Source: Pseudomonadota bacterium
GTDB lineage: Bacteria; Pseudomonadota; Gammaproteobacteria; Burkholderiales; Burkholderiaceae_C
Length of the DNA: 64,000 bases
Direction of reading: 5' to 3'
NCBI GenBank assembly: GCA_019351955.1
Contig: JABBOE010000001.1
Coordinates: 8,234-72,233 of the forward strand
In this document: piece by piece, positions 2,531-25,216 of the stretch
How the letters are laid out: each line of letters begins with the position of its first letter
Numbering within the stretch: the first letter of the stretch is position 1
The notes under the pieces: generated by a model
Told to the model about the DNA's origin: nothing
What the model saw: the letters and a program-made list of their open reading frames with translations, nothing else
The model's database searches: none
Made by a program: the position numbers and the translations under genes

Positions 2531-3553
2531 ATGGACAAGCCATACGGCGTCGGCCATGTTCTGGCGCATACCACCGAAATCTGGGATGAGTTCAGGCAGG
2601 CGCGACTGTTCGTTACGGGCGGAACCGGTTTCATTGGCAAGTGGTTGCTGGAGTCGTTTCTAGCAGCGAACGATGCTTTCGACCTGCGAGCGAGGGTCTG
2701 TGTGCTCAGTCGCGACCCAGCCCGCTTCGGTGCGGAAATGCCAAGCATCTCCACGCATGCGGCCATCGAATTTGTCGTTGGCGATGTGCGCTCCTTCGAC
2801 TTCCCTCGCGGGCCATTTACCCACATCGTTCATGGTGCGACCGACATCGCCAATCCAGCCTTGCCGCTCGACACTTTCGACGTGACGGTCCGTGGCACTC
2901 GGCGTGTGCTCGACTTTGCCCAGGTGTGCGGGGTGACAAACCTGTTGCTCATCAGTTCTGGCGCAGTCTACGGAAGACAGCCACCGGACATTGACCAAGT
3001 TGCCGAAGACTATGTCGGAGCGCCTAGCGTGCTGTCCACAGCGTCCGCTTATGGCCAGGGCAAGCGCGTATCGGAGTGGCTGAGCATCGTTTATGGCCAG
3101 TCAGGCATGCAGGTACGAATCGCGCGCTGCTTCGCCCTTGTCGGCCCGTATCTCCCGTTGGACAAGCACTTCGCCATCGGCAATTTCATGCGAGACGCCC
3201 TAGCCCGTCAAGACATTGCCATATGCGGCGACGGCACGCCGTTGCGGTCCTATCTCCATGCCGCAGACCTGGCCGCATGGTTGTGGACCATCATGGCCCG
3301 AGGAGCGCCGTCGAGCGTGTTCAACGTTGGCTCTGACCAAGCGATCTCCATCGCGGGGATTGCCGAACTTGTAGCCCGACTTGCCGGATCGGGAAGTCGG
3401 ATCAACATTGCAAAAGCGTTCCAGCCTGGCGCGACACCGGAGCGCTATGTTCCGTCCATCGACAAGGCTAGACGGGAGTTGGGCCTGAATGTATGGATCC
3501 CCCTCGAAGCAGCCATTCTCGATACCATTTTTGCGTACCGGAGCAAGCTGTGA
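2531..3553 (+). CDS. NAD(P)-dependent sugar epimerase/reductase (extended SDR), probable CDP-ketosugar reductase
   Basis: 340 aa. Glycine-rich motif VTGGTGFIGKWL and a YGQGK (YxxxK) catalytic motif. Sits between rfbH and the transketolase pair. Exact substrate cannot be deduced from sequence. Confidence 0.7.
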   Translation: MDKPYGVGHVLAHTTEIWDEFRQARLFVTGGTGFIGKWLLESFLAANDAFDLRARVCVLSRDPARFGAEMPSISTHAAIEFVVGDVRSFDFPRGPFTHIVHGATDIANPALPLDTFDVTVRGTRRVLDFAQVCGVTNLLLISSGAVYGRQPPDIDQVAEDYVGAPSVLSTASAYGQGKRVSEWLSIVYGQSGMQVRIARCFALVGPYLPLDKHFAIGNFMRDALARQDIAICGDGTPLRSYLHAADLAAWLWTIMARGAPSSVFNVGSDQAISIAGIAELVARLAGSGSRINIAKAFQPGATPERYVPSIDKARRELGLNVWIPLEAAILDTIFAYRSKL

Positions 3554-3594: not shown

Positions 3595-4401
3595 ATGGAA
3601 AGATTTGATCCAACGCGGATTCGCAGAGCCATTCTGGACATGGCTTACTCAGGCGGAACAGTGCACATCGGCTGCGCGTTCTCCATCGTGGAGCTACTTG
3701 CCGTCCTATATCGCAATCACTTGCGATTGGCCGGCCCTGATCAGGCTACCGAGGGGCGCGACTATATGGTCTTAAGCAAAGGGCATGGCGTCATGACGCT
3801 GTACGCCTGCCTCAACGAGATCGGCATGTTGTCGGATGAGGACATCAAACAATACTTCAGGGATGGCACCCGCCTCAAGGGGCTTGCCGACGTCCACGTC
3901 GCGGGAGTGGAGGCAACGACCGGATCCCTTGGGCATGGCCTTTCCGTCGGGGCAGGGCTCGCGCTTGCAGCGAAACGGAAGAAAACCGACCAAATCTCTT
4001 ATGTCTTGGTCGGCGACGGTGAACTCAACGAGGGCGCAATTTGGGAAGCGGTACTGTTTGCAGCCCATTTCAAACTCGATAACCTGATCGTCATCGTCGA
4101 CAAGAATGGTTTTCAAGCAATGGGATCCACGCACGAAGTGATCGAACTAGGGAGTATCGAACAGAAATTCTCGGCTTTCGGCTTTGACGCCCTGACAGTG
4201 GATGGCCACGACGAAGCCGCCGTGGACGCTGCATATCAATCGTTGAAGACAAATAAAAACGGACGCCCGAAGGTCATAGTTGCGAATACCGTGAAGGGAA
4301 AGGGCGTCTCATTCATGGAGCACGACAACACATGGCATTACACCAGATTGACGCCTGAGACCTATCGGGCCGCAATTGCAGAATTGGAGGTCATTGTATG
4401 A
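3595..4401 (+). CDS. transketolase, N-terminal (ThDP/PP-binding) subunit
   Basis: ORF 3493..4401 trimmed to ATG 3595, preceded by GGAGG. Motifs SKGHG and the ThDP motif GDGELNEGAIWEA. About 268 aa, typical of split transketolase subunit A. Confidence 0.85.
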   Translation: MERFDPTRIRRAILDMAYSGGTVHIGCAFSIVELLAVLYRNHLRLAGPDQATEGRDYMVLSKGHGVMTLYACLNEIGMLSDEDIKQYFRDGTRLKGLADVHVAGVEATTGSLGHGLSVGAGLALAAKRKKTDQISYVLVGDGELNEGAIWEAVLFAAHFKLDNLIVIVDKNGFQAMGSTHEVIELGSIEQKFSAFGFDALTVDGHDEAAVDAAYQSLKTNKNGRPKVIVANTVKGKGVSFMEHDNTWHYTRLTPETYRAAIAELEVIV

Positions 4402-5330
4402 GAAGCGCCTTTTCCGATGCAATAACGGCCGAAGCGAAGCGCGATCCAAGAGTGCTTCTCTTGACGGGGGATCACGGCTATGCGTTATTTGATTCATTCC
4501 GAAAGAGGTGTCCTGAGCAGTATATTAATTGTGGCATCGCTGAACAGAATATGGTTGGTGTTGCAGCAGGGCTGGCAAGAGCGGGTTTTCGCCCGATCGT
4601 TTACGGCCTGGCAGCATTCGTTCCGGTTCGTGTGCTTGAGCAAATCAAAATCGATGTGTGCTACGAACGGCTCCCGGTGATCTTCATCGGGGACGGCGCA
4701 GGCCTCGTCTACAGCCACCTCGGCACCAGCCATCAGTCCACCGAAGACATTGCCTGTACCCGATCCATTCCGGATCTGACCGTTCTTTCCCCGGCGGACC
4801 GCTTTGAAATGGCAGCCGCCCTTGCTCAGGCCTTCGATGCTGCGTCGCCGGTGTATTTGCGCATGGGAAAATCCGACCGCGGCGATGTGCATCGGGGGCC
4901 GGTGGACTTCTCAGCGGGACAAATGATCTTTGTAAAGGGGGGACGCAGCGAAGTCGTCATGCTGGCAACCGGGTCTATGGTGAAAACCGCGCTCGAACTG
5001 ACGGTCCGTGGGGTTGATGCGCAAGTGTGGAGCGTGCCATCAATCAAGCCGCTCGATAGCGCGAGTCTCGGCGAGATCTGCCGCCACGCAAAAGTATTGA
5101 TCACGTTGGAAGAGCATTCCGTCTTTGGGGGCTTGGGTTCTTGTATTGCCGAGGAGGTCGCAAAAATAAATCCAGTTCCGATATGCCGCATCGGTATCGA
5201 AGACCGCTTTTCGGCGCTCTGTGGCAGTTATGATTATTTGCTCAAAGAACATGGGATTGACCTTGCGTCCGTTAAGCAACGAGTTGATGGATTTTTGCAA
5301 GTTCAGTTGGCAGCTTCGCTTCGAATTTAA
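4398..5330 (+). CDS. transketolase, C-terminal (pyrimidine-binding) subunit
   Basis: 310 aa. NCGIAEQNMVGVAAGLA motif. ATGA start/stop overlap with the N-terminal subunit and GGAGG at 4386-4390. Confidence 0.85.
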   Translation: MRSAFSDAITAEAKRDPRVLLLTGDHGYALFDSFRKRCPEQYINCGIAEQNMVGVAAGLARAGFRPIVYGLAAFVPVRVLEQIKIDVCYERLPVIFIGDGAGLVYSHLGTSHQSTEDIACTRSIPDLTVLSPADRFEMAAALAQAFDAASPVYLRMGKSDRGDVHRGPVDFSAGQMIFVKGGRSEVVMLATGSMVKTALELTVRGVDAQVWSVPSIKPLDSASLGEICRHAKVLITLEEHSVFGGLGSCIAEEVAKINPVPICRIGIEDRFSALCGSYDYLLKEHGIDLASVKQRVDGFLQVQLAASLRI

Positions 5331-5406
5331 TGAAACCCCTTCGTATGCATTCCACCACCCTCAAAAAATTGCATGAGACAGGCATTAAAGCTGGAAATTG
5401 GGGAAT

Positions 5407-5793
5407 ATGCACGCGCTGACAGTTTTGAGAAAGAAGCGCTTCGTTCGATTCCTCCTTGTAGGGGCGCTTAATACCTTTTTTGGCTATGCCTGCTTCGCAG
5501 CATTTTTGTACGCGGGCTTGCATTACATCCTGGCTTTGCTTGCCGCTACCGTCATCGGCGTGGCTTTCAACTTCAAGACCATTGGAGCCTTGGTTTTCGA
5601 TTCGCGGGCCAATCATCTGATCTTTCGATTTGTGGCCTGTTACGGCGTGGTCTATGCAGTCAATGCTTTGTTGCTGACGGCTTTTCAAGCGGGTGGTCTC
5701 CACTCCCCTCTCGTCGGCCAAGCAGTCCTTGTGCTCCCGATGGCAATTTTTTCCTACACACTCAACCGACGTTACGTGTTCCTACATGGCTAA
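5407..5793 (+). CDS. GtrA-family small membrane protein (putative polyprenyl-phosphate-sugar flippase)
   Basis: About 128 aa with four predicted hydrophobic helices. N-terminus KRFVRFLLVGALNTFFGYACF is typical of the GtrA family. Overlaps the next gene by 8 nt. Confidence 0.75.
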   Translation: MHALTVLRKKRFVRFLLVGALNTFFGYACFAAFLYAGLHYILALLAATVIGVAFNFKTIGALVFDSRANHLIFRFVACYGVVYAVNALLLTAFQAGGLHSPLVGQAVLVLPMAIFSYTLNRRYVFLHG

Positions 5794-6760
5794 GCTCATC
5801 AGTATCGTCACTCCCTGCTACAACGAAGAAGACAACGTTGACGAGCTCTGCGAGCGCATCGCCAAGGTGATGCGCTCGCAGCCTTATGAGTACGAGCACA
5901 TTCTGATTGACAACCACTCGACAGACGGTACGGTGGCGCGCGTCAAGGCAATCGCCGCCAATGACCCGCGCGTCAAGCTCATCGTCAATGCACGCAATTT
6001 CGGCCACATTCGCTCGCCCTACTACGGAATCCTCCAGTCCAGCGGCGATGCTTGCGTCCTGATTGCATCGGACTTGCAGGATCCGCCAGAGATCATTGCG
6101 GAATTCATCCAGCGCTGGGAGGAGGGGTACAAGACGGTGCTCGCCGTCAAGCCGGAAAGCGAAGAATCGCCCGTCGTGTTCATGCTGCGCAAGCTATATT
6201 ACCGCTTCGTCACGGCCATCTCCGAAGTTCCCTTGGTGAAGAACGCCACCGGCGCCGGGATGTTCGACCGCGAGGTTGTCCAGATCCTCAGGAAAATCCA
6301 GGACCCGTATCCGTATTTTCGCGGACTGGTTTGTGAAATCGGTTTTCCAATTGCCACCGTGCCGTTCAAGCAGCCGCGAAGAAAGCGCGGGATCACGAAG
6401 AACAATTTCTACACGCTTTACGACAATGCCATCCTCGGCATAACCAATCACTCAAAGCTTCCCCTCAGGCTGATGACCATCGGCGGGTTTGCTTTGTCAA
6501 TTCTCAGCTTCGTCACTGCAATGTGCTTCCTGCTTGCGAAATTGCTGTTCTGGAATTCATTCCAGCTCGGCATTGCGCCAATCCTGATCGGGATGTTCTT
6601 CTTCTTCGCAATTCAGATGTTTTTCCTCGGTCTGCTTGGCGAATATATCGGAGCGATCTATACACACGTCAGGCGCGTACCTCTAGTAGTAGAAATGGAG
6701 AGGGTGAATTTTGACCTAACGTCCGCTGATGCCGCGATCGAGGCAAAAAATGAGCAGTGA
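5786..6760 (+). CDS. family-2 glycosyltransferase, polyprenyl-phosphate sugar synthase type (GtrB/ArnC/DPM1-like)
   Basis: ORF 5693..6760 trimmed to ATG 5786. ISIVTPCYNEEDNV GT-A start and a DxD-like ASDLQD. Two C-terminal TM helices (LRLMTIGGFALSILSF..., ILIGMFFFFAIQMFFLGLLGEYIG) as in GtrB/ArnC. Confidence 0.8.
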   Translation: MAKLISIVTPCYNEEDNVDELCERIAKVMRSQPYEYEHILIDNHSTDGTVARVKAIAANDPRVKLIVNARNFGHIRSPYYGILQSSGDACVLIASDLQDPPEIIAEFIQRWEEGYKTVLAVKPESEESPVVFMLRKLYYRFVTAISEVPLVKNATGAGMFDREVVQILRKIQDPYPYFRGLVCEIGFPIATVPFKQPRRKRGITKNNFYTLYDNAILGITNHSKLPLRLMTIGGFALSILSFVTAMCFLLAKLLFWNSFQLGIAPILIGMFFFFAIQMFFLGLLGEYIGAIYTHVRRVPLVVEMERVNFDLTSADAAIEAKNEQ

Positions 6761-8813
6761 AGTTTTATCGAAAAGCGCCAAAAGAATCTGCTTGGCATTT
6801 TTGGCGCTCACGCTATATTCTGCGATCACCTATCTTGCTTTTGTGCCGCATGGCATCTCCTGGACGCATGACATATTTTCGCCGAACGGGGATGCGTACA
6901 TCGGAATTTGGTCAATGAATTGGTGGCCATTTTCCATAAAGAATGGAATAAATTCATTTTTGACGAAATATATTTGGTATCCAAGTGGATTTAACCTTGC
7001 TTGGGCTGGCGTCATGCCAACATTGGCATTTATTGGTTATCCACTTACTAATTGGCTGGGGCCCATAGCGTCATACAATATATTGGCGTTATCCGTCTAT
7101 CCTTTAGGGGCATTCGGCGTTTACTTGCTTTCCAAATATTTGACAGATAACTATCCCGCGGCGCTCTTCTCGGGTTTTTTATTCGGATTTTCATCATACA
7201 TTGTCGGCCAATCGCTGGGGCATATTGTATTGTCATTTGTTTGCCTGATTCCCCTTGCCGTTCTTGTGGCAGTCAAGCGGTTTAGGGGTGAAATAGGAAG
7301 GACGATATTTATCGTCGTCGTGGCCTTATTCGTGGCACTTGAGTTTGGTATATATATAGAAGTTGTGGCCACCGCCACATTTTTTTCCAGCTCTTATTTG
7401 TTATTATATTATTATTTCAATGAAAAATTGCGGCAACGCCTCAGAGCGTTGATGTTCGAGCTTGGAGCCGGGTTCGTCCTTGCTATTGTTATATTGAGCC
7501 CTTATCTATTTTATATTATCGATGGCTTGAGTTTTGTTCCGAATGTCATAAACTCTCCATTTTCGTTTTCCGCTGATTTATTAAATTACATTATACCGAC
7601 GCCACTTGCGTGGGTCGGTGGGGTTATTTTTACTCCAATATCGTCACGATTTACTGGTAACTTCAGTGAGACTGGTGCATATCTGGGTGTAATTTTCGTC
7701 GGTGTGATGGTATTGTCGCTTCGTGCGAATTTGAAAATGTCGTGGGGGATGCCATTATTATATTGGCTGATATTTGTCGCCATATGTAGCCTTGGTCCAT
7801 ATTTGCAAATTGGTGGTGTCAATACAAAAATTCCATTGCCGTGGGCGCTATTCGAGAGAACGCCATTGCTCGGACATGCGCTGCCAACCCGATTTACGCT
7901 TTATATTGATCTCGGGGCATCTGTATTAGCCGCGTTTTGGTTGAGCGAACGCGCCCTGGGTCGCTGGGAAAAGATATTAAGATATTTGATCGTGCTTTGT
8001 GCGTTGGTTATGATATTTCCCGCCACGCGGCCGTGGCCTTTTGGTGAGAATGGGATTCCTTGGGCGGCCGCCGGTACGCCGCAATTATTTCTTGATCAAG
8101 CAATCCTGAAAAAATACATTAAAGCAAACGATGTTGTTGTCATATTGCCATACGGAAGTCAGGGAGGGTCGATGCTCTGGCAGGTCCAGTCCGGCATGTA
8201 CTTCAGGATGGCGGGCGGGTATGTCGGTTTTACACCGAAGCAATTTGGTGGGTTGCCAGCGGTGAATATTTTTTACAATAGTAATATACCGTCGGATGCT
8301 GAAACGGTGAAGAATGCGGTGGCGAGTTTCTGTGCTACTCATGACGTCAAGGCGATCATTCTTGCGCCGGGAACTAGCCCGGCGCTTTCGGCTGCTATGC
8401 AGAAGTTGGATTGGAAATCGGAGCAAGCGGGTGGGGTCGAACTGATTCGGGTGCCACCAACTGCTGAATTGAAATATAGCGATATACGTGGCGATTACTG
8501 GCAAAGCGTGGCAGACTGGGCTTGGATGGGGAAAACTATCGCGATTTCCAACCATGGCATCGGGTCGACGTTTTACGTGAAGGCTGAAGGGTTGCCGCCG
8601 GCTGTCGGACCAATCAGCTTGACGGTTCGGCGAGACGGCAAAGTTGAGTACGTGCTTTTAACCCCCGGGAAAGGCGGCGTTTTTTCTTTCAAGGTCGGGC
8701 CGTTTGCCGCCGCAACGATAACTGCCGACAGGACGTGGAGACCAAATAAGGTCATTTATAACGGCGACGAGCGACAATTATCAGTATTATTTAAAGTTGA
8801 GGATTCGCATTGA
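6750..8813 (+). CDS. large polytopic membrane protein, putative GT-C-type periplasmic glycosyltransferase (ArnT/YfhO/GtrC-like role)
   Basis: ORF 6729..8813 trimmed to ATG 6750, which overlaps the GT2 stop. The first ~440 aa are hydrophobic multi-TM, followed by a ~250-aa soluble C-terminal domain. Strongly AT-rich codon usage. Function is inferred from context with the GtrA/GtrB-like genes; I recognised no diagnostic family motif. Confidence 0.5.
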   Translation: MSSEVLSKSAKRICLAFLALTLYSAITYLAFVPHGISWTHDIFSPNGDAYIGIWSMNWWPFSIKNGINSFLTKYIWYPSGFNLAWAGVMPTLAFIGYPLTNWLGPIASYNILALSVYPLGAFGVYLLSKYLTDNYPAALFSGFLFGFSSYIVGQSLGHIVLSFVCLIPLAVLVAVKRFRGEIGRTIFIVVVALFVALEFGIYIEVVATATFFSSSYLLLYYYFNEKLRQRLRALMFELGAGFVLAIVILSPYLFYIIDGLSFVPNVINSPFSFSADLLNYIIPTPLAWVGGVIFTPISSRFTGNFSETGAYLGVIFVGVMVLSLRANLKMSWGMPLLYWLIFVAICSLGPYLQIGGVNTKIPLPWALFERTPLLGHALPTRFTLYIDLGASVLAAFWLSERALGRWEKILRYLIVLCALVMIFPATRPWPFGENGIPWAAAGTPQLFLDQAILKKYIKANDVVVILPYGSQGGSMLWQVQSGMYFRMAGGYVGFTPKQFGGLPAVNIFYNSNIPSDAETVKNAVASFCATHDVKAIILAPGTSPALSAAMQKLDWKSEQAGGVELIRVPPTAELKYSDIRGDYWQSVADWAWMGKTIAISNHGIGSTFYVKAEGLPPAVGPISLTVRRDGKVEYVLLTPGKGGVFSFKVGPFAAATITADRTWRPNKVIYNGDERQLSVLFKVEDSH

Positions 8814-8868
8814 AGCGTCATTTCATGCGACTTTGTGTTTATGGGTTAACTAAATATTTGTCGAGAAA

Positions 8869-9906
8869 ATGGATAGGTCTGCAATCATTACTGGTATCAC
8901 CGGCCAAGACGGAGCCTATCTTTCTGGGCTATTGCTAGAGAAGGGATACACCGTCTACGGCACCTATCGCCGCAGCAGTTCGGTGAACTTCTGGCGCCTT
9001 GAGGAACTGGGCGTTGCCCAGCATCCAAAATTGCGTCTGGTCGAGTTCGACCTGACCGACCTAGGTTCAGCCATCCGCCTGCTGCAGACCAGCGGCGCGA
9101 CTGAGGTGTACAACCTAGCCGCCCAAAGTTTTGTCGGTGTGTCGTTCGACCAACCGCAGACGACGGCGCAGATCACCGGGATTGGCGCTTTGAACCTGCT
9201 GGAGGCCCTTCGCATCGTCAACTCGAAGATCCGCTTCTACCAGGCCAGTACCTCGGAGATGTTCGGCAAGGTGCAGGCGGTGCCGCAGGTGGAAGACACG
9301 CCGTTCTATCCGCGCAGCCCGTACGGGGTCGCCAAGCTGTATGCGCATTGGATGACGGTGAACTACCGCGAAAGCTACGGCATCTTCGGCAGCAGCGGCA
9401 TTCTGTTCAACCACGAAAGTCCGTTGCGCGGGCGCGAGTTCGTCACCCGCAAGATCACCGACAGCCTGGCCAAGATCAGACTGGGCAAGCTGGATGTGCT
9501 GGAGTTGGGCAATATGGACGCCAAGCGTGACTGGGGCTATGCGAAGGACTACGTGGAGGGTATGTGGCGCATCCTGCAAGCCGACGAGCCTGACACCTTT
9601 GTGCTGGCCACCAACCGTGCGGAAACCGTGCGCGACTTTGTTTCCATGGCGGCCAAGGCTGCGGGCTTCAACCTCGAATGGCAAGGCAAGGCCGAGCAGG
9701 AGCGGGGGATCGACGCCGCAACCGGCAAGGCCATTGTGATCATCAACCCCAAGTTCTACCGTCCCGCAGAGGTGGAGTTGCTGATCGGCAATCCGGCCAA
9801 GGTCAAGGCCAAGCTGGCTTGGGCGCCCACCACGACGCTGGAGCAGCTTTGCGCCATGATGGTCGAGGCGGATTTGCGCCGTAACGAAGCGGGGTTCTCG
9901 TTCTGA
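8869..9906 (+). CDS. gmd: GDP-mannose 4,6-dehydratase
   Basis: 345 aa. N-terminus [23 protein letters not shown] and high overall similarity to Gmd proteins. Confidence 0.95.
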
Positions 9907-10808
9907 TGCAGGCGCCAACTGCATTGGTGACCGGCGCTGGCGGATTTACCGGCCGCTATCTCGTGCCGGCGCTGCGCGACAAGGAATTTCGCGTGGTCGG
10001 CCTGGGGGAGGGGGCATCCTCCGCTGATGTCGACATCTCCTGCAATCTGACGAACACTGCGGCCGTACGCTCCGCCGTGGAGCAAGCGCAGCCGACGCAT
10101 GTGGTGCATCTGGCCGCGCTCGCCTTCGTGGGACATGGAGATGCGCGGGCGTTTTATGACGTCAACCTCTTCGGTACGCTCAACCTGCTGGAAGCGCTGG
10201 CGGCACTGGACGTGCCGCCGCAAAAGGTGCTCATCGCGAGTTCGGCCAATGTGTACGGTACCCCGGGAGTCGAGGTGATTGACGAAACGGTTTGCCCGGC
10301 ACCGGTGAACCACTATGCCTGCAGCAAACTGGCCATGGAGCACATGGTGCGCACCTGGTTTGAGCGGTTGCCAATCGTGATGACGCGACCGTTCAATTAC
10401 ACCGGGGTGGGGCAGGACGAGAAGTTTCTCATCCCCAAGATCGTGAGTCATTTCCAGCGCAACGCCGCGCACATCGAACTGGGGAATCTCGACGTTGCAC
10501 GAGATTTTTCCGACGTGCGGGACGTGGCGGCGGCTTATATGGCCCTGCTCGATTCGGATGCGCATTCCGACGTGTTCAACGTCTGCACTGGCGAAGCCGT
10601 TGCCTTGCGAGAAGTGCTACGCATGATGGCCGAGATCAGCGCCCACGACTTGGAGGTGCGCGTGAACCCGGCGTTCGTGCGCTCGAATGAAATTCCCGTC
10701 TTACGGGGCGACCCGCGTAAGCTCCAGGGACAAACCGGGCATACCTCCAGCATTCCGCTGCGCGACACGCTGCACTGGATGTACACGGCCGCGTCGCCAG
10801 CAGCGTAG
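9906..10808 (+). CDS. rmd: GDP-4-dehydro-6-deoxy-D-mannose reductase (GDP-D-rhamnose synthase)
   Basis: 300 aa. Blocks shared with Pseudomonas Rmd as I recall it: NLFGTLNLLEAL, YACSKLA, RPFNYTGVGQ, LGNLDVARDFSDVRDV, VFNVCTG. TGATG overlap with gmd. Confidence 0.8.
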   Translation: MQAPTALVTGAGGFTGRYLVPALRDKEFRVVGLGEGASSADVDISCNLTNTAAVRSAVEQAQPTHVVHLAALAFVGHGDARAFYDVNLFGTLNLLEALAALDVPPQKVLIASSANVYGTPGVEVIDETVCPAPVNHYACSKLAMEHMVRTWFERLPIVMTRPFNYTGVGQDEKFLIPKIVSHFQRNAAHIELGNLDVARDFSDVRDVAAAYMALLDSDAHSDVFNVCTGEAVALREVLRMMAEISAHDLEVRVNPAFVRSNEIPVLRGDPRKLQGQTGHTSSIPLRDTLHWMYTAASPAA

Positions 10809-10837
10809 ACCGGTACTGAAACTGAGCTTCTCTCTTT

Positions 10838-13216
10838 ATGCACTTACCACGAGCGGAACAAGCAACACCGGTTTTTTTCACCATCGTGTCGGCCAATTAC
10901 ATGGCCTATGCGAAGACCCTCATGGCGTCGATCCGCGAGAACCATCCGGATTCGCTGCGCTATGTGTTCCTGGCCGACGAAACCCTCAGCGAATTGAACA
11001 TCGAGGCAGGCTTGTTCAAGCTTCGCTTAGGCAAAGATTTGCCGGTGCCCCATTTTGAGCACCTGGCGTTTCGCTACAACATTCTGGAATTCAACACCGC
11101 GCTCAAGCCGTTCGCCATCAGCCAGTTGATGCTCGAAAACCCGGCGGCACCAGTGCTCTACATCGACCCCGATATTCTTCTTCTCTCCCCGTTGACGGAG
11201 GTTTTCAGCCGCCTGTCGGCTGGAGCGATGGCGGTGCTTACGCCCCACTTCACCGCGCCGCTGGAAGATGGGAAATCGCCGGACGAGCTCGCCATCTCGC
11301 GCGTGGGAAGCTTCAACCTGGGGTTTCTCGCAACGGGCCCACAGCCATCACGCCAGGCTTTCGTTGACTGGTGGTGCCGCAAGCTGGAGTTCGGCGCCTT
11401 CGTTGATCTGGAGTCGGGCTTGTTCACCGACCAGAAGTGGATGGATCTAGTGCCGGGCATGTTCCCGGGCGTGCAGATCCTGCGGCACCCCGGTTACAAC
11501 CTGGCGTACTGGAACCTACCGCACCGCCCGGTGGCCCTGGCAAACGATGGCGCGCTGCTGGCGGGTGGCGAACCGGTGGCCTTCATCCATTTCTCGGGGG
11601 TGGACGTACACCACCCGGAAATGTTCTCGAAACATCAGAACCGCTTTGACATCACGAACATTGGCTCGCTGCGGCCCACCTACGAGCGCTACGTGGCACT
11701 GCTACAGACCAACGGCTATGACGATTACCTCAAGATCGGCTACCGGTATGGCAAGCTGCGCGACGGCACGCGCATCACGCAGGACATGCGCGAGATCTTC
11801 CGACAAAAGTTTGACATCGGCTGCGCGGATCCCACCCAGGATCCGTTTGGTCTGCCTGGCACGGCTTTCGTGGAACCTCTCCCCGTGTCCATACGCGTCA
11901 TGCGCTTGGCGCGGCAGCAGCTCACGCGGATACGCAACTTCTGGCCAGTGCGTGTTCTGTTCAACCGACTCAGCCCGGAAGCGCGGTGGGCGCTGCGCCG
12001 CTTTGTCATGCGTGGAGTGCAGTCGCCCGAAGCACGTGCACTTCGGCAACAGAAAGCACAACGAGCGCTGGGCTTTGAAACTCAACGGGAAGAAGGCGGC
12101 CAGGGCACGGCGGCCAACTTCATTGGCTACCTCACCGGAGAATTCGGTGTTGCAGAGAACGCCAGGCTGTTCATTGCCGCAGCGCAGCGAGCAGGTGTGA
12201 AGCTGGCTCTAACTAGCATCGACGCGACCAATACTGCCCGGCAGAGTGACGCGAGGTATGAGCACGCCGTCACCAACAAGGCCACGTTTCCGATCAGTGT
12301 GATTTTCGCCAATGCGGATCAAGCGCCGCTCGTGCAGGCTGCGCTGGGGCCGGACTATCGCACTTCTTACACGGTGGGATATTGGTATTGGGAGCTTGGC
12401 CTGTTTCCGGAAGAATGGGTAGGCAGCTTTGACTACGTGGACGAGGTCTGGACAGCCACAGAATTCGTGCGCGACGCGGTGCAGGCACGCACGCATAAGC
12501 CCGTGTACAAACTGCGACCTCCGGTCGATGTTCGCCTCGACCGGGCCTACCGGCGCTTGGAGTTCGGCATCCCGGACGATCGTTATGTCTTTCTCTTCAG
12601 CTTTGATTTCCAGTCCTTCATCGAACGCAAGAATCCTTTCGGCGCGATTGACGCATTCAAACTGGCGTTTCCGGAGCCAGATGACCGCGCCATTCTTGTC
12701 CTGAAGGCCACGAACGGCGACAAGAAGCCGGATGAGCGCAAACGTTTGCTGGACTCGATTGGCACGGATACTCGCATCGTGCTTCAAGACCAGTTTCTGA
12801 GCCGCGAGGCCATGTTCGGTCTTGAAAGCGTGGTTGATTGCTATGTCTCGCTGCATCGCGCCGAGGGATTTGGTTTGGGCCTAGCCGAATCGATGGCACT
12901 GGGCAAGCCTGTGATCGGCACAGCCTACTCTGGAAATATGGAGTTCATGAACGCCGCGAACAGCTGTCTGGTGGGCTACCGGCTTATTGACATCGAGAGG
13001 AACCAGTACCCCTTCGGCTTGGGCAAACAATGGGCCGACCCCGACTTGGCGCAGGCAGCATTCCACATGCGCCGCTTGGTGGACAACCCCGCCTACGCCC
13101 AAGCCATGGGCCAAGCCGGCGCGGCACATATGCGCGACGAATTCGGTCTTGAGCCCTGCGGCAATGCGGTAGCAAACCGGCTTGCGACGCTCACACAGCG
13201 CGGCACGCCGCGCTAA
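10838..13216 (+). CDS. two-domain glycosyltransferase (N-terminal GT-A-like domain plus C-terminal GT4/GT-B domain), probable D-rhamnosyltransferase
   Basis: 792 aa. The N-terminus FFTIVSANYMAYAKTLMASI is typical of nucleotide-sugar transferase domains. The C-terminus SLHRAEGFGLGLAESMALGKPVIGTAYSGNMEF is a GT4 signature. Placed directly after gmd-rmd. Confidence 0.7.
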   Translation: MHLPRAEQATPVFFTIVSANYMAYAKTLMASIRENHPDSLRYVFLADETLSELNIEAGLFKLRLGKDLPVPHFEHLAFRYNILEFNTALKPFAISQLMLENPAAPVLYIDPDILLLSPLTEVFSRLSAGAMAVLTPHFTAPLEDGKSPDELAISRVGSFNLGFLATGPQPSRQAFVDWWCRKLEFGAFVDLESGLFTDQKWMDLVPGMFPGVQILRHPGYNLAYWNLPHRPVALANDGALLAGGEPVAFIHFSGVDVHHPEMFSKHQNRFDITNIGSLRPTYERYVALLQTNGYDDYLKIGYRYGKLRDGTRITQDMREIFRQKFDIGCADPTQDPFGLPGTAFVEPLPVSIRVMRLARQQLTRIRNFWPVRVLFNRLSPEARWALRRFVMRGVQSPEARALRQQKAQRALGFETQREEGGQGTAANFIGYLTGEFGVAENARLFIAAAQRAGVKLALTSIDATNTARQSDARYEHAVTNKATFPISVIFANADQAPLVQAALGPDYRTSYTVGYWYWELGLFPEEWVGSFDYVDEVWTATEFVRDAVQARTHKPVYKLRPPVDVRLDRAYRRLEFGIPDDRYVFLFSFDFQSFIERKNPFGAIDAFKLAFPEPDDRAILVLKATNGDKKPDERKRLLDSIGTDTRIVLQDQFLSREAMFGLESVVDCYVSLHRAEGFGLGLAESMALGKPVIGTAYSGNMEFMNAANSCLVGYRLIDIERNQYPFGLGKQWADPDLAQAAFHMRRLVDNPAYAQAMGQAGAAHMRDEFGLEPCGNAVANRLATLTQRGTPR

Positions 13217-13235
13217 CGGGCATCGGCCATCTCCT

Positions 13236-14378
13236 GTGCGAGTTCTGCACTTCGGCAAATACGCGTTCGAGCGCGCTGGCGGCATGGAGCGCCATGTCGA
13301 GGTTCTCACCCGTGGCTTGGCAGCCGCCGGCGTTGATGTGTCGGTTCTGGTTTATGACCCCTCGGGGCTCGCCCGATCACGCGCCGTCGATGGCGTCCTT
13401 GTCGAGCCGGTGAGGCCTTGGTTCCATCTGGGAAGCCAAGCCATTGCGCCAGGCATGCTGGGCAGAGCCTACGCCCAAGCACGAAAGAAGCGCTTCGACT
13501 TGGTGCACCAGCACTGGCCTGACCCCTTTGGCCATGTCGTCGCTAGCCTCGTGCCGGGGCACCCAGCACACGTCGTGAGTTGGCATAGTGACATCGTGCG
13601 CCAGCGCGTGATAGGGCCGCTATACCTCGGACTGGCGCCCCATTTGCTGCGGCGCCCAGACGCGGTGGTGGGCGCGACTGCCGCGCATCTTCAATCTCGG
13701 CAGCTTGACGGTTTCGTCACGAGGGAACTCCGCCACGTCATTCCCTATGGCATCGACGTGCGCCCTCTGGAGCCTACGGCTGAGGTCTTGCGGCAAGCAG
13801 AGGCTCTACGCGCAAAGTACAAACACCAGCCTCTCGTGTTCGCATTAGGCCGGCATGTTTACTACAAAGGCTTCGATGTACTTATCAAAGCGATGGCCCA
13901 AGTACAGGCCGTGCTAATCTTGGGCGGCGAGGGGCCGCTAACAACCCAATTGCGCGGTTTGGCTTTGAGCAACGGCGCACGCGTGGAGTTTGCTGGCGCC
14001 ATTCCCGAAGAAGAACTGCCTGCCTACTTCCACGCTTGCGACGTGTACTGCCTCTCATATATCGCACAGGCTGAAGCCTTCGGCATCGTTCAGGCGGAGG
14101 CCATGGCTTGCGGCAAACCGGTGGTCAACACCTGGCTTCACAACGGCGTAAATGAGCTTGCAGCAAACAATGTATCCGCACTTACCGTAGACCCTGGTGA
14201 TCCCAACGCCTTGGCGAACGCTTTGAACCGCGTGTTGTGCAACTCAGAGCTAGCACGGCGCTTAGGTCGAGGTGGGTACCTACGTGTGCGGCAGGACTTT
14301 ACTGTAGAGGCCATGGTGCGGAAGACTATTGACCTCTACGCGGCGTTGCTGCAGTGGCGCGCCAAGCAACGCGTTTGA
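13236..14378 (+). CDS. GT4-family glycosyltransferase (WbpY/WbpZ-like)
   Basis: ORF 13182..14378. A GTG at 13236 gives N-terminus VRVLHFGKYAFERAGGMERHV, typical of GT4, without overlapping the upstream gene. C-terminal QAEAFGIVQAEAMACGKPVV motif. Confidence 0.75.
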   Translation: MRVLHFGKYAFERAGGMERHVEVLTRGLAAAGVDVSVLVYDPSGLARSRAVDGVLVEPVRPWFHLGSQAIAPGMLGRAYAQARKKRFDLVHQHWPDPFGHVVASLVPGHPAHVVSWHSDIVRQRVIGPLYLGLAPHLLRRPDAVVGATAAHLQSRQLDGFVTRELRHVIPYGIDVRPLEPTAEVLRQAEALRAKYKHQPLVFALGRHVYYKGFDVLIKAMAQVQAVLILGGEGPLTTQLRGLALSNGARVEFAGAIPEEELPAYFHACDVYCLSYIAQAEAFGIVQAEAMACGKPVVNTWLHNGVNELAANNVSALTVDPGDPNALANALNRVLCNSELARRLGRGGYLRVRQDFTVEAMVRKTIDLYAALLQWRAKQRV

Positions 14379-14653: not shown

Positions 14654-16117
14654 TCAATAGCCTGAATGAAGAGAACGCACGCCTTCATGAAGGTGCATCA
14701 CAGGAGGTATTTCTGATCGCCCCTCGAAAGCCACCTCTTCGCCACTTCCAATTCGCGCAAAGACAGCATCAATGCGCCGCCGAGCGGCGATATCAATTGC
14801 CTCCTCAAACATCGAACGGGAATAATTCCAAAGCTCCTTTCGCATGGCGCCACCCAAAGGTGACTCAAACTCTCTTATACACAAGCGATGAACCCACACC
14901 CCATCCTCAAAATCGACTCGGTCATGCCCCTGCCCGGCAGTGAGAACATGCACCTGATGCCCGTCCGTTGCTGCGCTAGCAGCAAACTGATAGGCGTCCG
15001 CTCCGGCGCTGTCAGCGCCCTTCTGGTCGTACTCGCGGCATAAAACCACAAAGCATCGCTGGCAGCTCGCATCAAGCAATGGCTTAAACGTCAATATATC
15101 ACCCATCCCTCTCAGTTGTTCGGCCCTCCAGATCCTTCGCACTCCCGCCAGACCGCGGTTGAGACCATCGCGAAGCGCCCGATTTACATCCGATTCGAAT
15201 CGTTTCATGTATACAGGGTCAAGCCCTTTGACCTCAACGGCCCAGCGCGCGTCATGCCTGTATCTCTCAATCGCTGCACCTATGTCTAGCAAGATCTGGT
15301 AAAGGCCTGCATGCTCACCCGCATTGAGAATCGAGAAGTAAACCTTATTTTTGACCAGTGAATACCAATTAGTTAAAACACCGCCATCATCTCTTATATC
15401 ACTTGCCAAATATTTGTGATGAACAAAGCCAACACTCACTTGTGCCACCTTGAACCCAGCATCTACAAGACGTAATATGAGATCACTTTCATCCAAAAAA
15501 TATTCATATTCCTCATCAAACCCACCAAGCTCGGCGATTGCTGATCGCCGAAAAACGCTATTTGCCATTACATGCGGATAATTGAAACTACCAGGGAAAT
15601 TAAATTCCGGCGTCGCGCGACCCCAAGATTGATCTGGCGTACCAAAGCGGTTGAGGGTCCCATACATCCATTGATAACCCTTCCCGGTGTGATCATGTAA
15701 AAAGCCGCCTGCGACAGCAACATCGCCGTCTATAAACATCGGGATCAAATCGCTCAGCCACTCCGGCTCGGGAACCGAATCATCGTCTAGAAATGCGATA
15801 AACTCACCCGCTGAATTCGCAATGCCAATATTTCTCGAAAGAGACAAATTTCTTATCGGGCATTGCGCATATCGAATAACAGACCCATAAGAGTCGCAGA
15901 GTTCGTGTGTGCCATCCCGCGTGGGCCCCGCGACAACCACGACCTCAAAGTTTGGATACCGAAGGTAACGCAGACTTTCAAGGCAAGTTGTCAAACTTTT
16001 AACCCGTGCATCGGTATTTATAACAACCGAAACAGGGGGATAGAACTCGCGATGAATCATTATTTTCAAAAAATCCTCAGAGATAACTCCATCATCGTGA
16101 AATAGCCCACTTCGCAT
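14654..16117 (-). CDS. GT2-family glycosyltransferase with a C-terminal extension resembling half of a GT-B domain
   Basis: 487 aa. GT-A start VSVVINTDARVKSL...NFEVVVVAGP and FLDDDSVPEPEWL (DxD). The last ~130 aa (DGHQVHVLTAGQGHDRVDFEDGVWVHRL) look like the N-terminal Rossmann half of a GT4, without the catalytic half. AT-rich. Confidence 0.7.
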   Translation of the reverse strand: MRSGLFHDDGVISEDFLKIMIHREFYPPVSVVINTDARVKSLTTCLESLRYLRYPNFEVVVVAGPTRDGTHELCDSYGSVIRYAQCPIRNLSLSRNIGIANSAGEFIAFLDDDSVPEPEWLSDLIPMFIDGDVAVAGGFLHDHTGKGYQWMYGTLNRFGTPDQSWGRATPEFNFPGSFNYPHVMANSVFRRSAIAELGGFDEEYEYFLDESDLILRLVDAGFKVAQVSVGFVHHKYLASDIRDDGGVLTNWYSLVKNKVYFSILNAGEHAGLYQILLDIGAAIERYRHDARWAVEVKGLDPVYMKRFESDVNRALRDGLNRGLAGVRRIWRAEQLRGMGDILTFKPLLDASCQRCFVVLCREYDQKGADSAGADAYQFAASAATDGHQVHVLTAGQGHDRVDFEDGVWVHRLCIREFESPLGGAMRKELWNYSRSMFEEAIDIAARRRIDAVFARIGSGEEVAFEGRSEIPPVMHLHEGVRSLHSGY

Positions 16118-16200: not shown

Positions 16201-16755
16201 TTAAACCCGAGGCGAGACGGAGCGTGGATGCAGCATACTTTCGCCCGTCGCACCCGGTTCCGATTCCTCTTGACCGGACGTTTTTAAAGCACCGCCACTC
16301 ATTCCAGCCGGATCGCTAGGTCTATTACCGGAATTCCCCGAAAGGCTCGACAAATCCCTGCGCAAAGCAATCACGTCACGGGTAATTTTGCGCAATGAAA
16401 CCGGAACCGAACCGACAATGTTTTCCCAGTCCTTTTCGGCTGCGGTTTGACGGTCCTGAAGATCGGATATGGTCTGCAACACGCTCTGCAACCGGGTTTC
16501 TTCCAAAGTCACCAGGCGTTGTTCCAGAACGGATAGCCTATTCATGATTTCAGGCAACTGCCGCACTTCAAAATCATGCTGGCTTCGAATATAATTGGGA
16601 CACCGAATTACGCCGATCATTACCTGCAACGAGCGCCCTAAAATCGGCCATTTTGCAGCCTTGCGAACCAATCGCTTGAGCATTTTTTTCAATTTGATTC
16701 CGCCGTTATCGCGCGGTGACACCGCGGTCAACTTCGCCTTAAATTTCGCTGACAT
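16201..16755 (-). CDS. hypothetical coiled-coil protein
   Basis: 184 aa. Basic N-terminus and one hydrophobic segment (WPILGRSLQVMIGVI). Heptad-like stretch LSVLEQRLVTLEETRLQSVLQTISDLQDRQTAAEKDWENI. Low-complexity Ser/Gly tail. Overlaps the upstream GT2 stop by 17 nt. No family recognised. Confidence 0.5.
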   Translation of the reverse strand: MSAKFKAKLTAVSPRDNGGIKLKKMLKRLVRKAAKWPILGRSLQVMIGVIRCPNYIRSQHDFEVRQLPEIMNRLSVLEQRLVTLEETRLQSVLQTISDLQDRQTAAEKDWENIVGSVPVSLRKITRDVIALRRDLSSLSGNSGNRPSDPAGMSGGALKTSGQEESEPGATGESMLHPRSVSPRV

Positions 16756-17722
16756 ACCTTCGGCGCAGAGACGATATGAATTCGTCTATTTTTATGTCCG
16801 AAACCACAGAAGCTTTCTGCTCTAGGTGCTTTAACGCACCGTTGACTTCACGATCGACAAAAATCCGTAGATCATTTTGGTCGGCATGGAGAAGAAGTGG
16901 CATTTTTATTTTTTCGAGGACGCTTTCTAGGCTATACGCGGATTGCGCGATCCTGGTGGGCGCCGTCGAGTTTGTCGTGCTACTTGAGCGGTACATGTAA
17001 TGGTAAAAAACACCCTCAATGGAACGATAGGATTTGGCTTTGATGTAGATATACACAATGCATAGCATATCCTCTGCAAAAATTATACTTTCGTCAGTCG
17101 TTACGGCGATAGACGCCATCGCTGCATTCCATAGTTGGCGATTTATAATTTTATTCGCAAGACTGTTATTAGAACCACCTCTTAAGTAAGATTTTAAAAT
17201 GTCTTTCTCCTGCCAGCTTATCGCGCCGCTGAATCTTTTATGAACCCATGGTTCACCTGCTTCCGGAATCATAAGAAACGGGCATTCAACGACTTCGGCG
17301 GGCGCTGTCTCGGCCGCGGACGTCATTATCTCGATAAACTGCTCACTTGCGGCATCGTCATGGTCTAAGAACCAGAGATATTTTCCCTTTGCATGGGCAG
17401 CTCCTCGCTTTCGCGATTGGAATGTTCCAACGTGTCTTTTGTTGCGAATAATTTTAACCGGTATACTCTTCTGGCCAAACTTCTTCTTGATTGATTCAGA
17501 TAGTTTGGAGTGATCCGCAACGATAATGACCTCGAAGTCTTTAGATGTCTGCCTCAACAATGTATCAATACTGCATGCCAACTCGTTCTCCTCACCATGA
17601 AAAGGTATAATGACTGAAACTTTCTTAACCTTAAAAAAGTTTCTAGCGAAGCTCCGAATTTGACGCGAGAGATATTTGATCATAGTGAAACATGTGGCTT
17701 CAATTAGGCTGAAGTAACGCAA
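16739..17722 (-). CDS. GT2-family glycosyltransferase
   Basis: 327 aa. VSVIIPFHGEENELACSIDTLLRQT...FEVIIVADHS and FLDHDD (DxD). AT-rich. Confidence 0.75.
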   Translation of the reverse strand: MRYFSLIEATCFTMIKYLSRQIRSFARNFFKVKKVSVIIPFHGEENELACSIDTLLRQTSKDFEVIIVADHSKLSESIKKKFGQKSIPVKIIRNKRHVGTFQSRKRGAAHAKGKYLWFLDHDDAASEQFIEIMTSAAETAPAEVVECPFLMIPEAGEPWVHKRFSGAISWQEKDILKSYLRGGSNNSLANKIINRQLWNAAMASIAVTTDESIIFAEDMLCIVYIYIKAKSYRSIEGVFYHYMYRSSSTTNSTAPTRIAQSAYSLESVLEKIKMPLLLHADQNDLRIFVDREVNGALKHLEQKASVVSDIKIDEFISSLRRRYVSEI

Positions 17723-18189: not shown

Positions 18190-19060
18190 CGCTGCCACCG
18201 ACCATTTCTTCGGAGCGCCTCGATCACATGGACGATTTGCGCCACCTGCTGGTCTTGCACATGCCAGGGGAGGAGATCGAGGCACGGGTGGAATACATGT
18301 TGTTTTCCCTCAAGGGGCGCAGCGGTGCGACCAAGGCCGACCTTGGTCGTTTTGGTAAACAAACGCAGCGCGCTGCTGCACCTAAAGCAGACATTCAACG
18401 AGTCCGACGACGGCGCCGTTCAACGCTCGGGCCAGACACCAGCATGGTGGCCATTCTCGGGTCAGGCGTCTGTGAACAACACCAACCTTGACACGCCAGC
18501 ACTCTGATCAAGCTCCACGAAATCCCAGGCGAGGGGGCGTGGACGAGTCCTTCTGGCGCAGATCCTCAACGTGTCCGTGGATTTCAATCTGATCAAACTC
18601 CGGGAAATCGCGCGGGTGATTTTGTGTTGATAGCACGGCGGAGCACAAGCCGATCGCTCACGCCACCGACGTCCGCCTGCGGGAGACAGTGCGCACCAAG
18701 CTGGTGAAGGCGGCCAAGGATGCGGGCGTCGATCGGAAGCAGACTGGTGCCATCGCGTGCAAGGATCTCGGCCACAAGCCCGGGCGCGAGGCCAACGCAG
18801 CCCCAAGCCAAGCGGATGCGCCGCGCCATCAAACGACGCCGGCGCATCATCGTGGGCTGCTTGCAGCATGAGATCGTACTCAAGGCCAATGTCCTAGGGC
18901 AGTGGTGCGAAAGGTGCTCGGTGAGACCTTGGGAAAGACTACGCGCACCGAGTCCCAGTGTGGCAAGCGCATGCAGAGACGGCCAAGCCAACTCTAGGCC
19001 TAGCAAGCCCGCGAATGCCGCTGGTGGTGGAGGCTTTCGCATTCAGGGAGCAGAACTGGC
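18190..19060 (+). pseudogene. IS5-family (DUF772 + DDE_Tnp_1 type) transposase relic, multiply frameshifted with internal stops
   Basis: Transposase-like peptides are scattered over all three + frames: SERLDHMDDLRH, RSALLHLKQTFNESDD, LIKLREIARVI, STAEHKPIAHATDVRLRETVRTKLVKAAKDAGV, KRMRRAIKRRRRI. They appear in the order expected for IS5-type transposases. No intact ORF. Boundaries are approximate. Confidence 0.6.
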
Positions 19061-25183: not shown

Positions 25184-25216
25184 TTTTCTTGTTGGGGGCA
25201 AGGCCGAGGCGGCATA

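Follow-up and report, generated by a model that had tools for sequence, protein, structure and literature searches.

The window analysed here, a 64,000-nucleotide stretch of contig JABBOE010000001.1 (assembly GCA_019351955.1, Burkholderiales), contains at positions 5407-8813 three consecutive genes for a small GtrA-family protein, a family 2 glycosyltransferase (GT2) and a 687-aa membrane protein with a predicted GT-C fold. We conclude with high confidence that this trio has the architecture of a three-component periplasmic glycosylation system. Systems of this kind are a main means by which O antigens diversify and bacteria escape phages or immunity, and their known donors are few, namely hexoses activated with uridine diphosphate (UDP), 4-amino-4-deoxy-L-arabinose (Ara4N) and pentofuranoses derived from phosphoribosyl pyrophosphate (PRPP). 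The best joint explanation, which we consider reasonably probable, is a chromosomal Gtr-type three-component system with a cytidine diphosphate (CDP)-dideoxy sugar as donor and a D-rhamnose polymer as acceptor. Every feature of a Gtr-type system that can be tested on sequence or structure was found in the module, and the Gtr/Arn-type architecture, which had been proposed in an initial annotation made from the DNA letters, was recovered in all its parts (GtrA, GtrB/ArnC-type GT2 and GT-C fold). The module comprises the following features:

5407-5793, + strand: GtrA-family small membrane protein, 128 aa, presumed polyprenyl-phosphate-sugar flippase (Pfam PF04138)
5786-6760, + strand: GtrB/ArnC-type GT2, 324 aa, GT-A domain and two C-terminal transmembrane (TM) helices (Pfam, NCBIfam, phmmer against PDB)
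6750-8813, + strand: predicted GT-C-fold membrane glycosyltransferase, 687 aa, of a large uncharacterised family (AlphaFold2 model, Foldseek)
6750-8039, + strand: TM domain of the GT-C protein, residues 1-430, approx. 11 TM helices (DSSP of the model)
6891-6893, + strand: codon of Asp48, candidate catalytic acid/base in the first periplasmic loop (conservation)
8040-8813, + strand: predicted periplasmic C-terminal part of the GT-C protein, approx. 257 aa (about residues 431-687; secondary structure of the model)

The three open reading frames (ORFs) are co-oriented on the + strand, and their coordinates and overlaps as initially annotated (5786/5793 and 6750/6760) were read directly in the sequence. 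The ATG of the GT2 gene at 5786 lies inside the end of gtrA, whose stop codon TAA occupies 5791-5793 (8-base overlap), and the ATG of the third gene at 6750 lies inside the end of the GT2 gene, which closes with TGA at 6758-6760 (11-base overlap). Since stop and start codons overlap, co-translation of the trio is implied, and the layout is that of a single transcription and translation unit. No convincing terminator was found between the three genes by a pattern scan that proved uninformative: promoter and terminator patterns in 5200-9000 were counted at approx. 2 standard deviations above shuffled sequences, but fell in AT-rich coding sequence and are uninterpretable. The gtrA ORF has an alternative TTG start at 5398. 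The 687-aa ORF has the same length in the NCBI annotation of the source metagenome-assembled genome (MAG; HIU89_00070), and its locus-tag number suggests that approximately six genes precede the window on the contig. Among indexed contigs, the window's third gene was found on only one, a Logan contig of 7.3 kb whose sequence is identical to that of the window.

The GtrA protein matched PF04138 (GtrA_DPMS_TM) over the complete profile (positions 1-117 of 117; E 5.7e-16, 59.2 bits with a cut-off of 26.1), and about four hydrophobic segments were recognized in it, as in small GtrA-family proteins with three to four TM helices. The GT2 matched PF00535 (Glycos_transf_2) above the gathering cut-off (E 5.2e-23) and aligned in full length to the NCBIfam models for PgfS (E 4.7e-49) and ArnC (E 2.5e-31), in both cases below the equivalog cut-off; for ArnC (NF007986), 108.9 bits were reached where 529 are required, and the GT2 is not an ArnC equivalog by this model. 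Using phmmer against PDB, residues 5-302 were aligned to the Synechocystis GtrB sll0501 (5EKE, E 8.2e-48), and ArnC (9HWJ) was hit with an E-value of 3.4e-29. The hydrophobic C-terminal helices (approx. 227-250 and 266-291) are covered by the GtrB/ArnC alignments, giving the combination of a GT-A domain with two C-terminal TM helices known from GtrB, ArnC and CsbB. Because the alignment to solved GtrB and ArnC is full-length and includes the TM helices, we assign the GT2 to the polyprenyl-phosphate glycosyltransferases of the GtrB/ArnC type; it is an orthologue of neither, and its identity to the GtrB proteins of P22 and Shigella phages is approx. 31%. The initial description of the first two proteins, a GtrA-family member followed by a GT2 with two C-terminal TM helices, therefore holds.

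For the third protein, the initial annotation had recognized no family signature, and indeed neither Pfam nor NCBIfam produced a match. When PDB chains were searched with the 687-aa protein or with a profile of 44 sequences, only chance matches appeared (E > 0.3). YfhO (PF09586) and PMT_2 (PF13231) were without a match in the window protein; among 44 family members, four sub-threshold matches to PMT_2 (best 9.8e-05) and one to YfhO (0.058) were seen. Since sequence and profile searches gave nothing, the fold was resolved only by structure prediction. The AlphaFold2 model, built with 44 homologues, reached a mean pLDDT of 92.6 and a pTM of 0.90. In this model, TM1 (approx. residues 2-31) is followed by a structured first loop with helices (32-104) and by ten more TM helices up to residue 422. 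Foldseek against PDB returned 14 significant matches, all of them GT-C enzymes (AftD, AglB, STT3 including human STT3B, AftA, DPY19 and ArnT), with E-values from 4e-08 to 3e-04, a probability of 1.00 and modest TM-scores of 0.34-0.47. Of these, AftD, AftA, ArnT and DPY19 take their donor sugars from polyprenyl phosphate, and the others are oligosaccharyltransferases. Thus, a helix number within the range of 7-13, a structured first extracytoplasmic loop and likeness to solved GT-Cs come together in one polytopic protein, encoded alongside gtrA and the GT2 gene. The initial guess of a GT-C enzyme, which a structure prediction lacking this fold would have refuted, passed this check; the division into TM helices and a soluble tail was also borne out (helices within 2-422, soluble part approx. 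431-687).

The first loop of the model contains the candidate active site. Asp48 belongs to the motif G-D-P-x3-I-W-x2-N-W-W-P, just before the first loop helix (47-64) after TM1, and is kept in 43 of the 44 aligned family members, the remaining one having a gap here. From its conservation and its placement where the carboxylate of GT-C enzymes is expected, Asp48 is a candidate catalytic residue. Given a Lys/Arg-rich N-terminus and an odd number of helices (11), loop 1 and the C-terminal domain are both predicted to be periplasmic. The C-terminal part consists of an alpha/beta region (approx. 438-570) and a beta-sandwich (approx. 576-685). Lower-ranked Foldseek matches of the sandwich include CBM6 2CDP (probability 0.96) and a SUEL-lectin phage protein, and the modelled tail possibly binds the acceptor glycan. 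About a third of the homologues are tail-less, with lengths of 545-600 aa. Foldseek against viral predicted structures returned one full-length unnamed match and otherwise fragments of the beta-sandwich tail or of lectins, and no link to the phage Gtr(type) proteins emerged from this search.

The third gene had also been termed an orphan, which is ruled out, at least in the sense of a taxonomically restricted gene, by the breadth of its family. A word-index search with the 687-aa protein found at least 222 homologues at E ≤ 1e-3, the nearest being 62% and 46% identical and all others at most 39%, while an exhaustive profile search with a threshold of E ≤ 1e-3 detected 16,911 cluster representatives, of which 3,839 reached E ≤ 1e-30. 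When each GTDB species was represented by a single genome, 391 loci were found (Acidocella, Binataceae, Saccharimonadales, Actinomycetota, Nitrospirota and others), and tblastn against plasmids gave two weak actinomycete matches. The protein belongs to a GT-C family that is large but has no name and borders on DUF6311. A precomputed DUF6311 tag (PF19830.5) is attached to approx. 30% of the homologues among the matches listed. Using hmmscan, no match to PF19830.4 was obtained at E ≤ 10 for the window protein and three homologues (P0004, P0007, P0091), whereas the same model hits an ORF in a Cupriavidus locus (L086, see below) with 4.9e-19; the family members in two further loci described below (L002, L049) have no match at E ≤ 0.01. 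P0004, P0007 and P0091 are tagged with PF19830.5 and lack a PF19830.4 match, so that model version or method differs between the two results. Conversely, the family profile misses the DUF6311 protein of L086 even at E ≤ 10. Judged by these sequence comparisons, the window family and DUF6311 are distant relatives at best. In our literature searches, no mention of DUF6311 was found.

The module lies between two sets of biosynthetic genes (SDR, short-chain dehydrogenase/reductase; GDP, guanosine diphosphate):

80-1180, + strand: CDP-glucose 4,6-dehydratase (TIGR02622, 497 bits, cut-off 278)
1202-2515, + strand: RfbH, 3-dehydrase of 3,6-dideoxyhexose synthesis (NF011936, 739 bits, cut-off 423)
2531-3553, + strand: SDR, upstream donor-synthesis gene
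3595-4401, + strand: split transketolase, N part (Pfam Transketolase_N, Transket_pyr and Transketolase_C over the N/C pair)
4398-5330, + strand: split transketolase, C part (Pfam transketolase domains)
8869-9906, + strand: gmd (TIGR01472, 461 bits, cut-off 415)
9906-10808, + strand: rmd-like SDR, GDP-D-rhamnose synthesis
10838-13216, + strand: 792-aa glycosyltransferase with GT1/GT4 domain
13182-14378, + strand: GT4, presumed glycosyltransferase of the acceptor backbone

These flanks agree with the initial annotation, which had placed CDP-sugar/transketolase genes in front of the module and a D-rhamnan module behind it. Sugar-nucleotide and glycosyltransferase genes on both sides do not conform to a prophage location, and no phage genes were found within 5 kb of the module, although no tRNA scan was made. 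In the 792-aa protein, the GT1/GT4 match is confined to residues approx. 577-712, leaving approx. 570 N-terminal residues without a Pfam match. Further downstream, two ORFs have no Pfam match, at 18720-19514 (+ strand, 264 aa) and 23752-25473 (+ strand, 573 aa), of which the latter is possibly spurious and overlaps further long ORFs. A 1,346-aa AsmA/DUF748 protein (25217-29257, + strand, E 2.5e-247) is encoded downstream of the cluster, after genes for serine hydroxymethyltransferase and a lytic transglycosylase, and appears unrelated.

In a windowed analysis, the GC content drops from 0.56-0.63 to 0.42-0.45 across 6500-8000. The third gene (6750-8813) has a GC content of 0.465 and a GC content at third codon positions (GC3) of 0.49, whereas GC3 ranges from 0.58 to 0.79 in the cluster genes that flank it and from 0.70 to 0.84 in genes beyond the cluster. 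Its most AT-rich part is the one encoding the TM domain (6750-8039; GC 0.438, GC3 0.458). As GC3 is depressed as well, the dip goes beyond a bias for hydrophobic residues, and an explanation of the low GC content as a mere hydrophobic amino-acid effect was dropped. The GT-C gene is thus compositionally foreign and AT-rich, as initially noted; the description of 7381-7440 as almost all A/T was overstated, this segment having 72% A+T. Two more GT2 genes, at 14654-16117 (- strand) and 16739-17722 (- strand), are equally AT-rich (GC3 0.47). Since they share this signature, low GC content marks several variable genes of the cluster and not the GT-C gene alone.

To place the module in a wider context, loci anchored on the GT2 were compared, comprising three gene-level contexts and 80 metagenomic loci (83 in total). 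All 8,000 scored candidates of the GT2 search reached an E-value of 1e-30 or lower; among the 120 matches listed, nearly every one is 74-81% identical, with relatives in Cupriavidus, Uliginosibacterium, Gallionella, Methylococcales, Cellvibrio and Bacteroidota. Genes upstream on the same strand were counted in a subset of 17 loci in which GT2 identity is 67% or higher and 6.5 kb or more of sequence is available upstream. Here, rfbH was present in 13/17 loci, rfbG and gtrA in 12/17 each, an NTP-transferase gene in 11/17 and a split transketolase in 8/17, the genes often overlapping or abutting. Related cassettes begin with the NTP-transferase gene. In the tier with 54-61% GT2 identity, rfbH was found in 4/15 loci. 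Compared with the window, the GT2 is 71-77% identical, RfbH 70-80% and GtrA 35-56%; for the transketolase, the value is approx. 60% in most loci. The window's gene order ahead of gtrA-GT2 recurs in L002, L086, L093, L094, L099, L100, L109 and L111. The genes that make the donor and load the lipid (rfbFGH-tkt-SDR-gtrA-GT2) form a cassette that is both conserved and mobile. In literature searches, we found no report tying a gtrA/gtrB module to CDP-sugar or transketolase genes. In the literature consulted, sugar branching by thiamine diphosphate enzymes in lipopolysaccharide (LPS) is ascribed to the YerE type, and transketolases have been implicated only in the nucleoside antibiotics miharamycin and amipurimycin (PMC12247030). 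The split transketolase in a CDP-3,6-dideoxyhexose operon may represent an undescribed route to a C2-branched dideoxy sugar.

The third gene behaves differently. The window's GT-C family accompanies the cassette only in L002 and L049, and unrelated polytopic proteins are encoded in the other cassette loci; overall, one or more polytopic genes unrelated to the window family adjoin the GT2 in nearly every locus. In L002 (Caballeronia sp. dw_19), the order rfbF-rfbG-rfbH-SDR-tktN-tktC-gtrA-GT2 is followed by a convergent gene for a 549-aa family member (40% identity), and in L049 (a marine gammaproteobacterial MAG) a cassette of the L002 type without rfbH is followed by a 590-aa member (32% identity). 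The idea that the GT-C family is a regular partner of the cassette was rejected, as its profile gave an essentially null result against the third genes of the 83 GT2-anchored loci, the best match (1e-07) being to a DUF7024 protein. In L100, the layout of the window is reproduced with the cassette, a polytopic gene, gmd (79%) and rmd (49%), but a 771-aa DUF7024-tailed protein (10008-12320, + strand) replaces the GT-C protein of the window. Gmd and Rmd follow the cassette in L091 as well. The whole cassette is also present in Cupriavidus (L086), where it is flanked by a DUF6311 protein (1-1839, - strand) and a DUF7024-tailed protein (10538-12802, + strand), both candidates for alternative GT-Cs. 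GC3 of the third gene is the lowest or near-lowest of the locus in L100, L002 and L049, but not in L086. A different arrangement was observed in a Bacteroidota MAG (L087, GCA_050259955.1, 2015-11474), with wzm-wzt-GT61-acetyltransferase-FdtA-DegT-448 aa polytopic-GtrA-GT2-495 aa; this order resembles Xanthomonas wxc region 3 and looks like a second deoxy-sugar pathway coupled to the same GtrA/GT2 pair.

In the proposed mechanism, an undecaprenyl phosphate (Und-P)-linked monosaccharide would be made and then transferred to a glycan in the periplasm. At the cytoplasmic face, the GT2 would transfer one sugar from its nucleotide to Und-P, GtrA would flip the Und-P-sugar to the periplasmic leaflet, and the GT-C protein would take the lipid-linked donor, Asp48 of the first periplasmic loop being catalytic. 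The sugar would be added as a side branch or cap to an exported glycan linked to undecaprenyl diphosphate, and the C-terminal periplasmic domain may help to bind this acceptor. The proposed donor is a CDP-activated 3,6-dideoxyhexose, probably with a two-carbon branch from the split transketolase and subsequent SDR reduction; such a transketolase-type C2 extension and SDR reduction of the CDP product would apply to about half of the cassette cases. The proposed acceptor is a D-rhamnose-containing polymer encoded directly downstream.

A product of the CDP-3,6-dideoxyhexose pathway is proposed as the donor because the cassette is recurrent and tightly packed, and a donor other than UDP-glucose is plausible given the low identity of the GT2 to the UDP-glucose-using phage GtrB. 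Altogether, the evidence favours, short of proof, a lipid-linked donor whose 3,6-dideoxy (branched) sugar comes from the CDP pathway, and for the CDP-donor step on its own we lean only somewhat towards acceptance. The D-rhamnose polymer is probably the acceptor, as argued from adjacency of the Gmd and Rmd genes here, in L100 and in L091 and by analogy with precedents in Citrobacter youngae, Xanthomonas campestris and Burkholderia brasiliensis; the initial suggestion of a rhamnan acceptor accordingly has adjacency and the Xanthomonas and Citrobacter parallels on its side and stays circumstantial. The O polysaccharide of B. brasiliensis is said to have a D-rhamnose backbone. According to a title cited in PMC4153317, this O polysaccharide contains yersiniose A.

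Several observations weigh against a CDP-derived donor, and many of them fit an explanation that we regard as unlikely, although it deserves serious attention: the GT2 of a three-component system loads a common UDP-sugar (glucose, N-acetylglucosamine or galactose), the CDP-sugar enters the repeat unit via a cytoplasmic Leloir glycosyltransferase, and the CDP operon is adjacent because O-antigen clusters are mosaics. To our knowledge, all characterised enzymes of the GtrB/ArnC/CsbB/GacI type use UDP-sugars, the closest solved relatives of the GT2 being GtrB sll0501 and ArnC. GT2s with 75-77% identity occur in L088 (Cellvibrio), L095 and L104, where no sugar-nucleotide genes were found within 9 kb, and in L087 (GT2 75%) beside a FdtA/DegT/acetyltransferase pathway of the dTDP-3-acetamido-3,6-dideoxyhexose type (dTDP, deoxythymidine diphosphate). 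In a neighbour-joining tree these four GT2s are nested among the rfbH-linked ones, so that sequence separates no "CDP clade". This nesting means that the GT2 tolerates several 6-deoxy/3,6-dideoxy nucleotides, that pathway genes are located elsewhere in those genomes, or that the donor is a common UDP-sugar and the association with the CDP operon has no functional meaning; the high conservation of the GT2 across phyla fits a common donor, too. Other GT2 and GT4 genes of the window could install the CDP-sugar by the cytoplasmic route, and rfbF, the RfbH E3 reductase, wzm/wzt and the ligase gene waaL were not found within the window. On the other hand, rfbH is situated directly upstream, on the same strand and in tight operons, in 13/17 loci, which is far above expectation for a rare pathway, the cassette order is kept across Burkholderiales, a marine gammaproteobacterium and many metagenomes, and the GT2 shares only approx. 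31% identity with the phage UDP-glucose GtrB. The use of a CDP-derived sugar, as initially suggested, thus has circumstantial support from the rfbH linkage and is countered by equally similar GT2s without CDP genes.

Two further explanations concern the 687-aa protein. Its target might be something other than O antigen or rhamnan (lipid A or core, a protein, a periplasmic glucan, an exopolysaccharide), or it might terminate or cap chains, which we consider improbable. GT-Cs of similar fold do modify lipid A (ArnT) and proteins (PglB/AglB, PMT, DPY19), and most members of the GT-C family are neither found in obvious O-antigen clusters nor adjoin gtrA or a GtrB-type GT2: in 85 GT-C-anchored loci, GtrA was present in approx. 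7 and a GT2 in about a third within 8 kb, which also speaks against the proposed system as such. The absence of wzm/wzt and waaL from the window would fit another target as well. However, the GT-C gene is placed between the sugar-nucleotide genes and the gmd/rmd and GT4 genes, with only 55 intergenic bases to gmd, and the sandwich of cassette, polytopic gene and gmd-rmd recurs in L100. Moreover, the beta-sandwich tail resembles the glycan-binding modules of polysaccharide-modifying GT-Cs (PMC11127046). Very improbable, in our view, is an O-antigen polymerase or ligase or a transporter that shares only the polytopic architecture. The lack of a curated family signature and of sequence likeness to solved structures would allow this, but the top matches of the model are solely GT-C, and no Wzy, WaaL or transporter chain is among the 50 matches listed. 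Further, the first-loop Asp and the periplasmic loop motif are conserved, the gene is translationally coupled to those for GtrA and GtrB, and weak PMT_2 matches exist in 4/44 family members.

The kind of system described here is well known and versatile, and the module is, therefore, not categorically new. New are the fusion to a CDP-dideoxyhexose/transketolase operon as a conserved cross-phyla cassette, the implied non-UDP donor, and, among several interchangeable third components, a GT-C family that is large and uncharacterised. In the most far-reaching form, which we put forward tentatively and with some doubt, the GT2 would represent a widespread and so far unrecognised clade of GtrB-type enzymes loading a transketolase-branched CDP-3,6-dideoxyhexose on Und-P, the 687-aa protein would be the founder of a new CAZy GT-C family acting on D-rhamnan, and both belong to a modular cross-phyla cassette. 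If true, the donor chemistry of GtrB-type enzymes would be wider than assumed: the GT2 would be the first polyprenyl-phosphate glycosyltransferase to depend on a CDP-sugar, and its sugar the first branched one in LPS to be made by a transketolase. It would explain how rare immunodominant dideoxy or branched sugars are attached, e.g., yersiniose-type side chains on D-rhamnans, and a modular cassette with a conserved donor part and a swappable GT-C would diversify surface glycans across phyla. A genomic rule would follow, by which rfbH/tkt beside gtrAB and any polytopic gene predicts side chains and gives names to large unannotated GT-C families. For glycoengineering, a portable donor cassette and exchangeable GT-Cs would become available as parts. 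Since the cassette occurs in cultivable Cupriavidus and Caballeronia strains, the prediction is directly testable.

Among known systems, X. campestris wxc region 3 provides a parallel for a non-UDP donor. Mutants in wxcK and wxcN lose a dTDP-derived branch, whereas the D-rhamnan backbone persists and lengthens (PMC4878081). As proposed for the window, the D-rhamnan backbone is made independently there, and the branch needs a small GtrA-like protein together with an adjacent non-UDP (dTDP) deoxy-sugar pathway (PMC4878081). The likeness is by description only, with L087 as a Bacteroidota locus of the same kind (GT2 75% identical). A dTDP-3-amino sugar is used in X. campestris instead of the CDP-3,6-dideoxy pathway with transketolase in the window, and the lipid-linked intermediate is putative in both. 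In the light of this dTDP-derived branch, a non-UDP donor, initially called atypical, is less unprecedented than claimed, even if it remains outside the characterised GtrB-type enzymes.

A three-component system decorates the ABC-transporter-dependent C. youngae O antigen of D-rhamnose/D-mannose (D-Rha/Man), and in its GT-C a carbohydrate-binding domain follows TM11 (PMC11127046). In C. youngae O1/O2 (ORF12, founder of GT136) and Klebsiella gmlABC, a D-Rha/Man or galactan O antigen is decorated in the periplasm after polymerisation, as we propose for the window. The 11 TM helices and the C-terminal beta-rich carbohydrate-binding domain of the C. youngae enzyme are matched by the predicted topology of the window protein. 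In contrast, the pentofuranose donor of C. youngae originates from PRPP by a phosphoribose synthase and is flipped by a MATE flippase, where the window has a GT2 and GtrA, and the window GT-C, unlike those of C. youngae and gmlABC, has no detected sequence relation to any curated family. With ArnC/ArnT, the module shares a GT2 that aligns to ArnC in full length (E approx. 1e-29), a significant match of the GT-C model to ArnT (5F15), and sugar-modifying enzymes encoded in one operon with the lipid-loading GT2. It differs in having no arnA, arnB, arnD, arnE or arnF genes at the module, a large extra periplasmic domain on the GT-C, and no significant match to the PMT_2/ArnT profile. The DUF6311 (PF19830) and DUF7024-tailed proteins are likewise polytopic and are encoded beside the same cassette in L086.

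A close parallel in organisation is gtrA-gtrB-gtr(type), the O-antigen glucosylation cluster of Shigella and Salmonella phages, which has the same three parts in the same order with tight packing. In both, GtrA and GtrB are conserved and shared between loci, and the third gene has an aberrant composition and no relationship to its counterparts in other loci. The window module differs in belonging to a chromosomal polysaccharide cluster rather than a prophage, in its fusion to a CDP-3,6-dideoxyhexose/transketolase operon as opposed to a supply of UDP-glucose, in its GT2 (approx. 31% identical to phage GtrB), and in its larger GT-C of another family (687 aa, with a 257-aa tail). Shigella serotypes have conserved, interchangeable gtrA and gtrB genes, and gtr(type) is specific to the serotype (PMC3259042). 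By analogy with this logic, the GT-C beside the cassette would set acceptor and linkage and appears to be exchanged between unrelated families, while the donor-making and lipid-loading part is kept.

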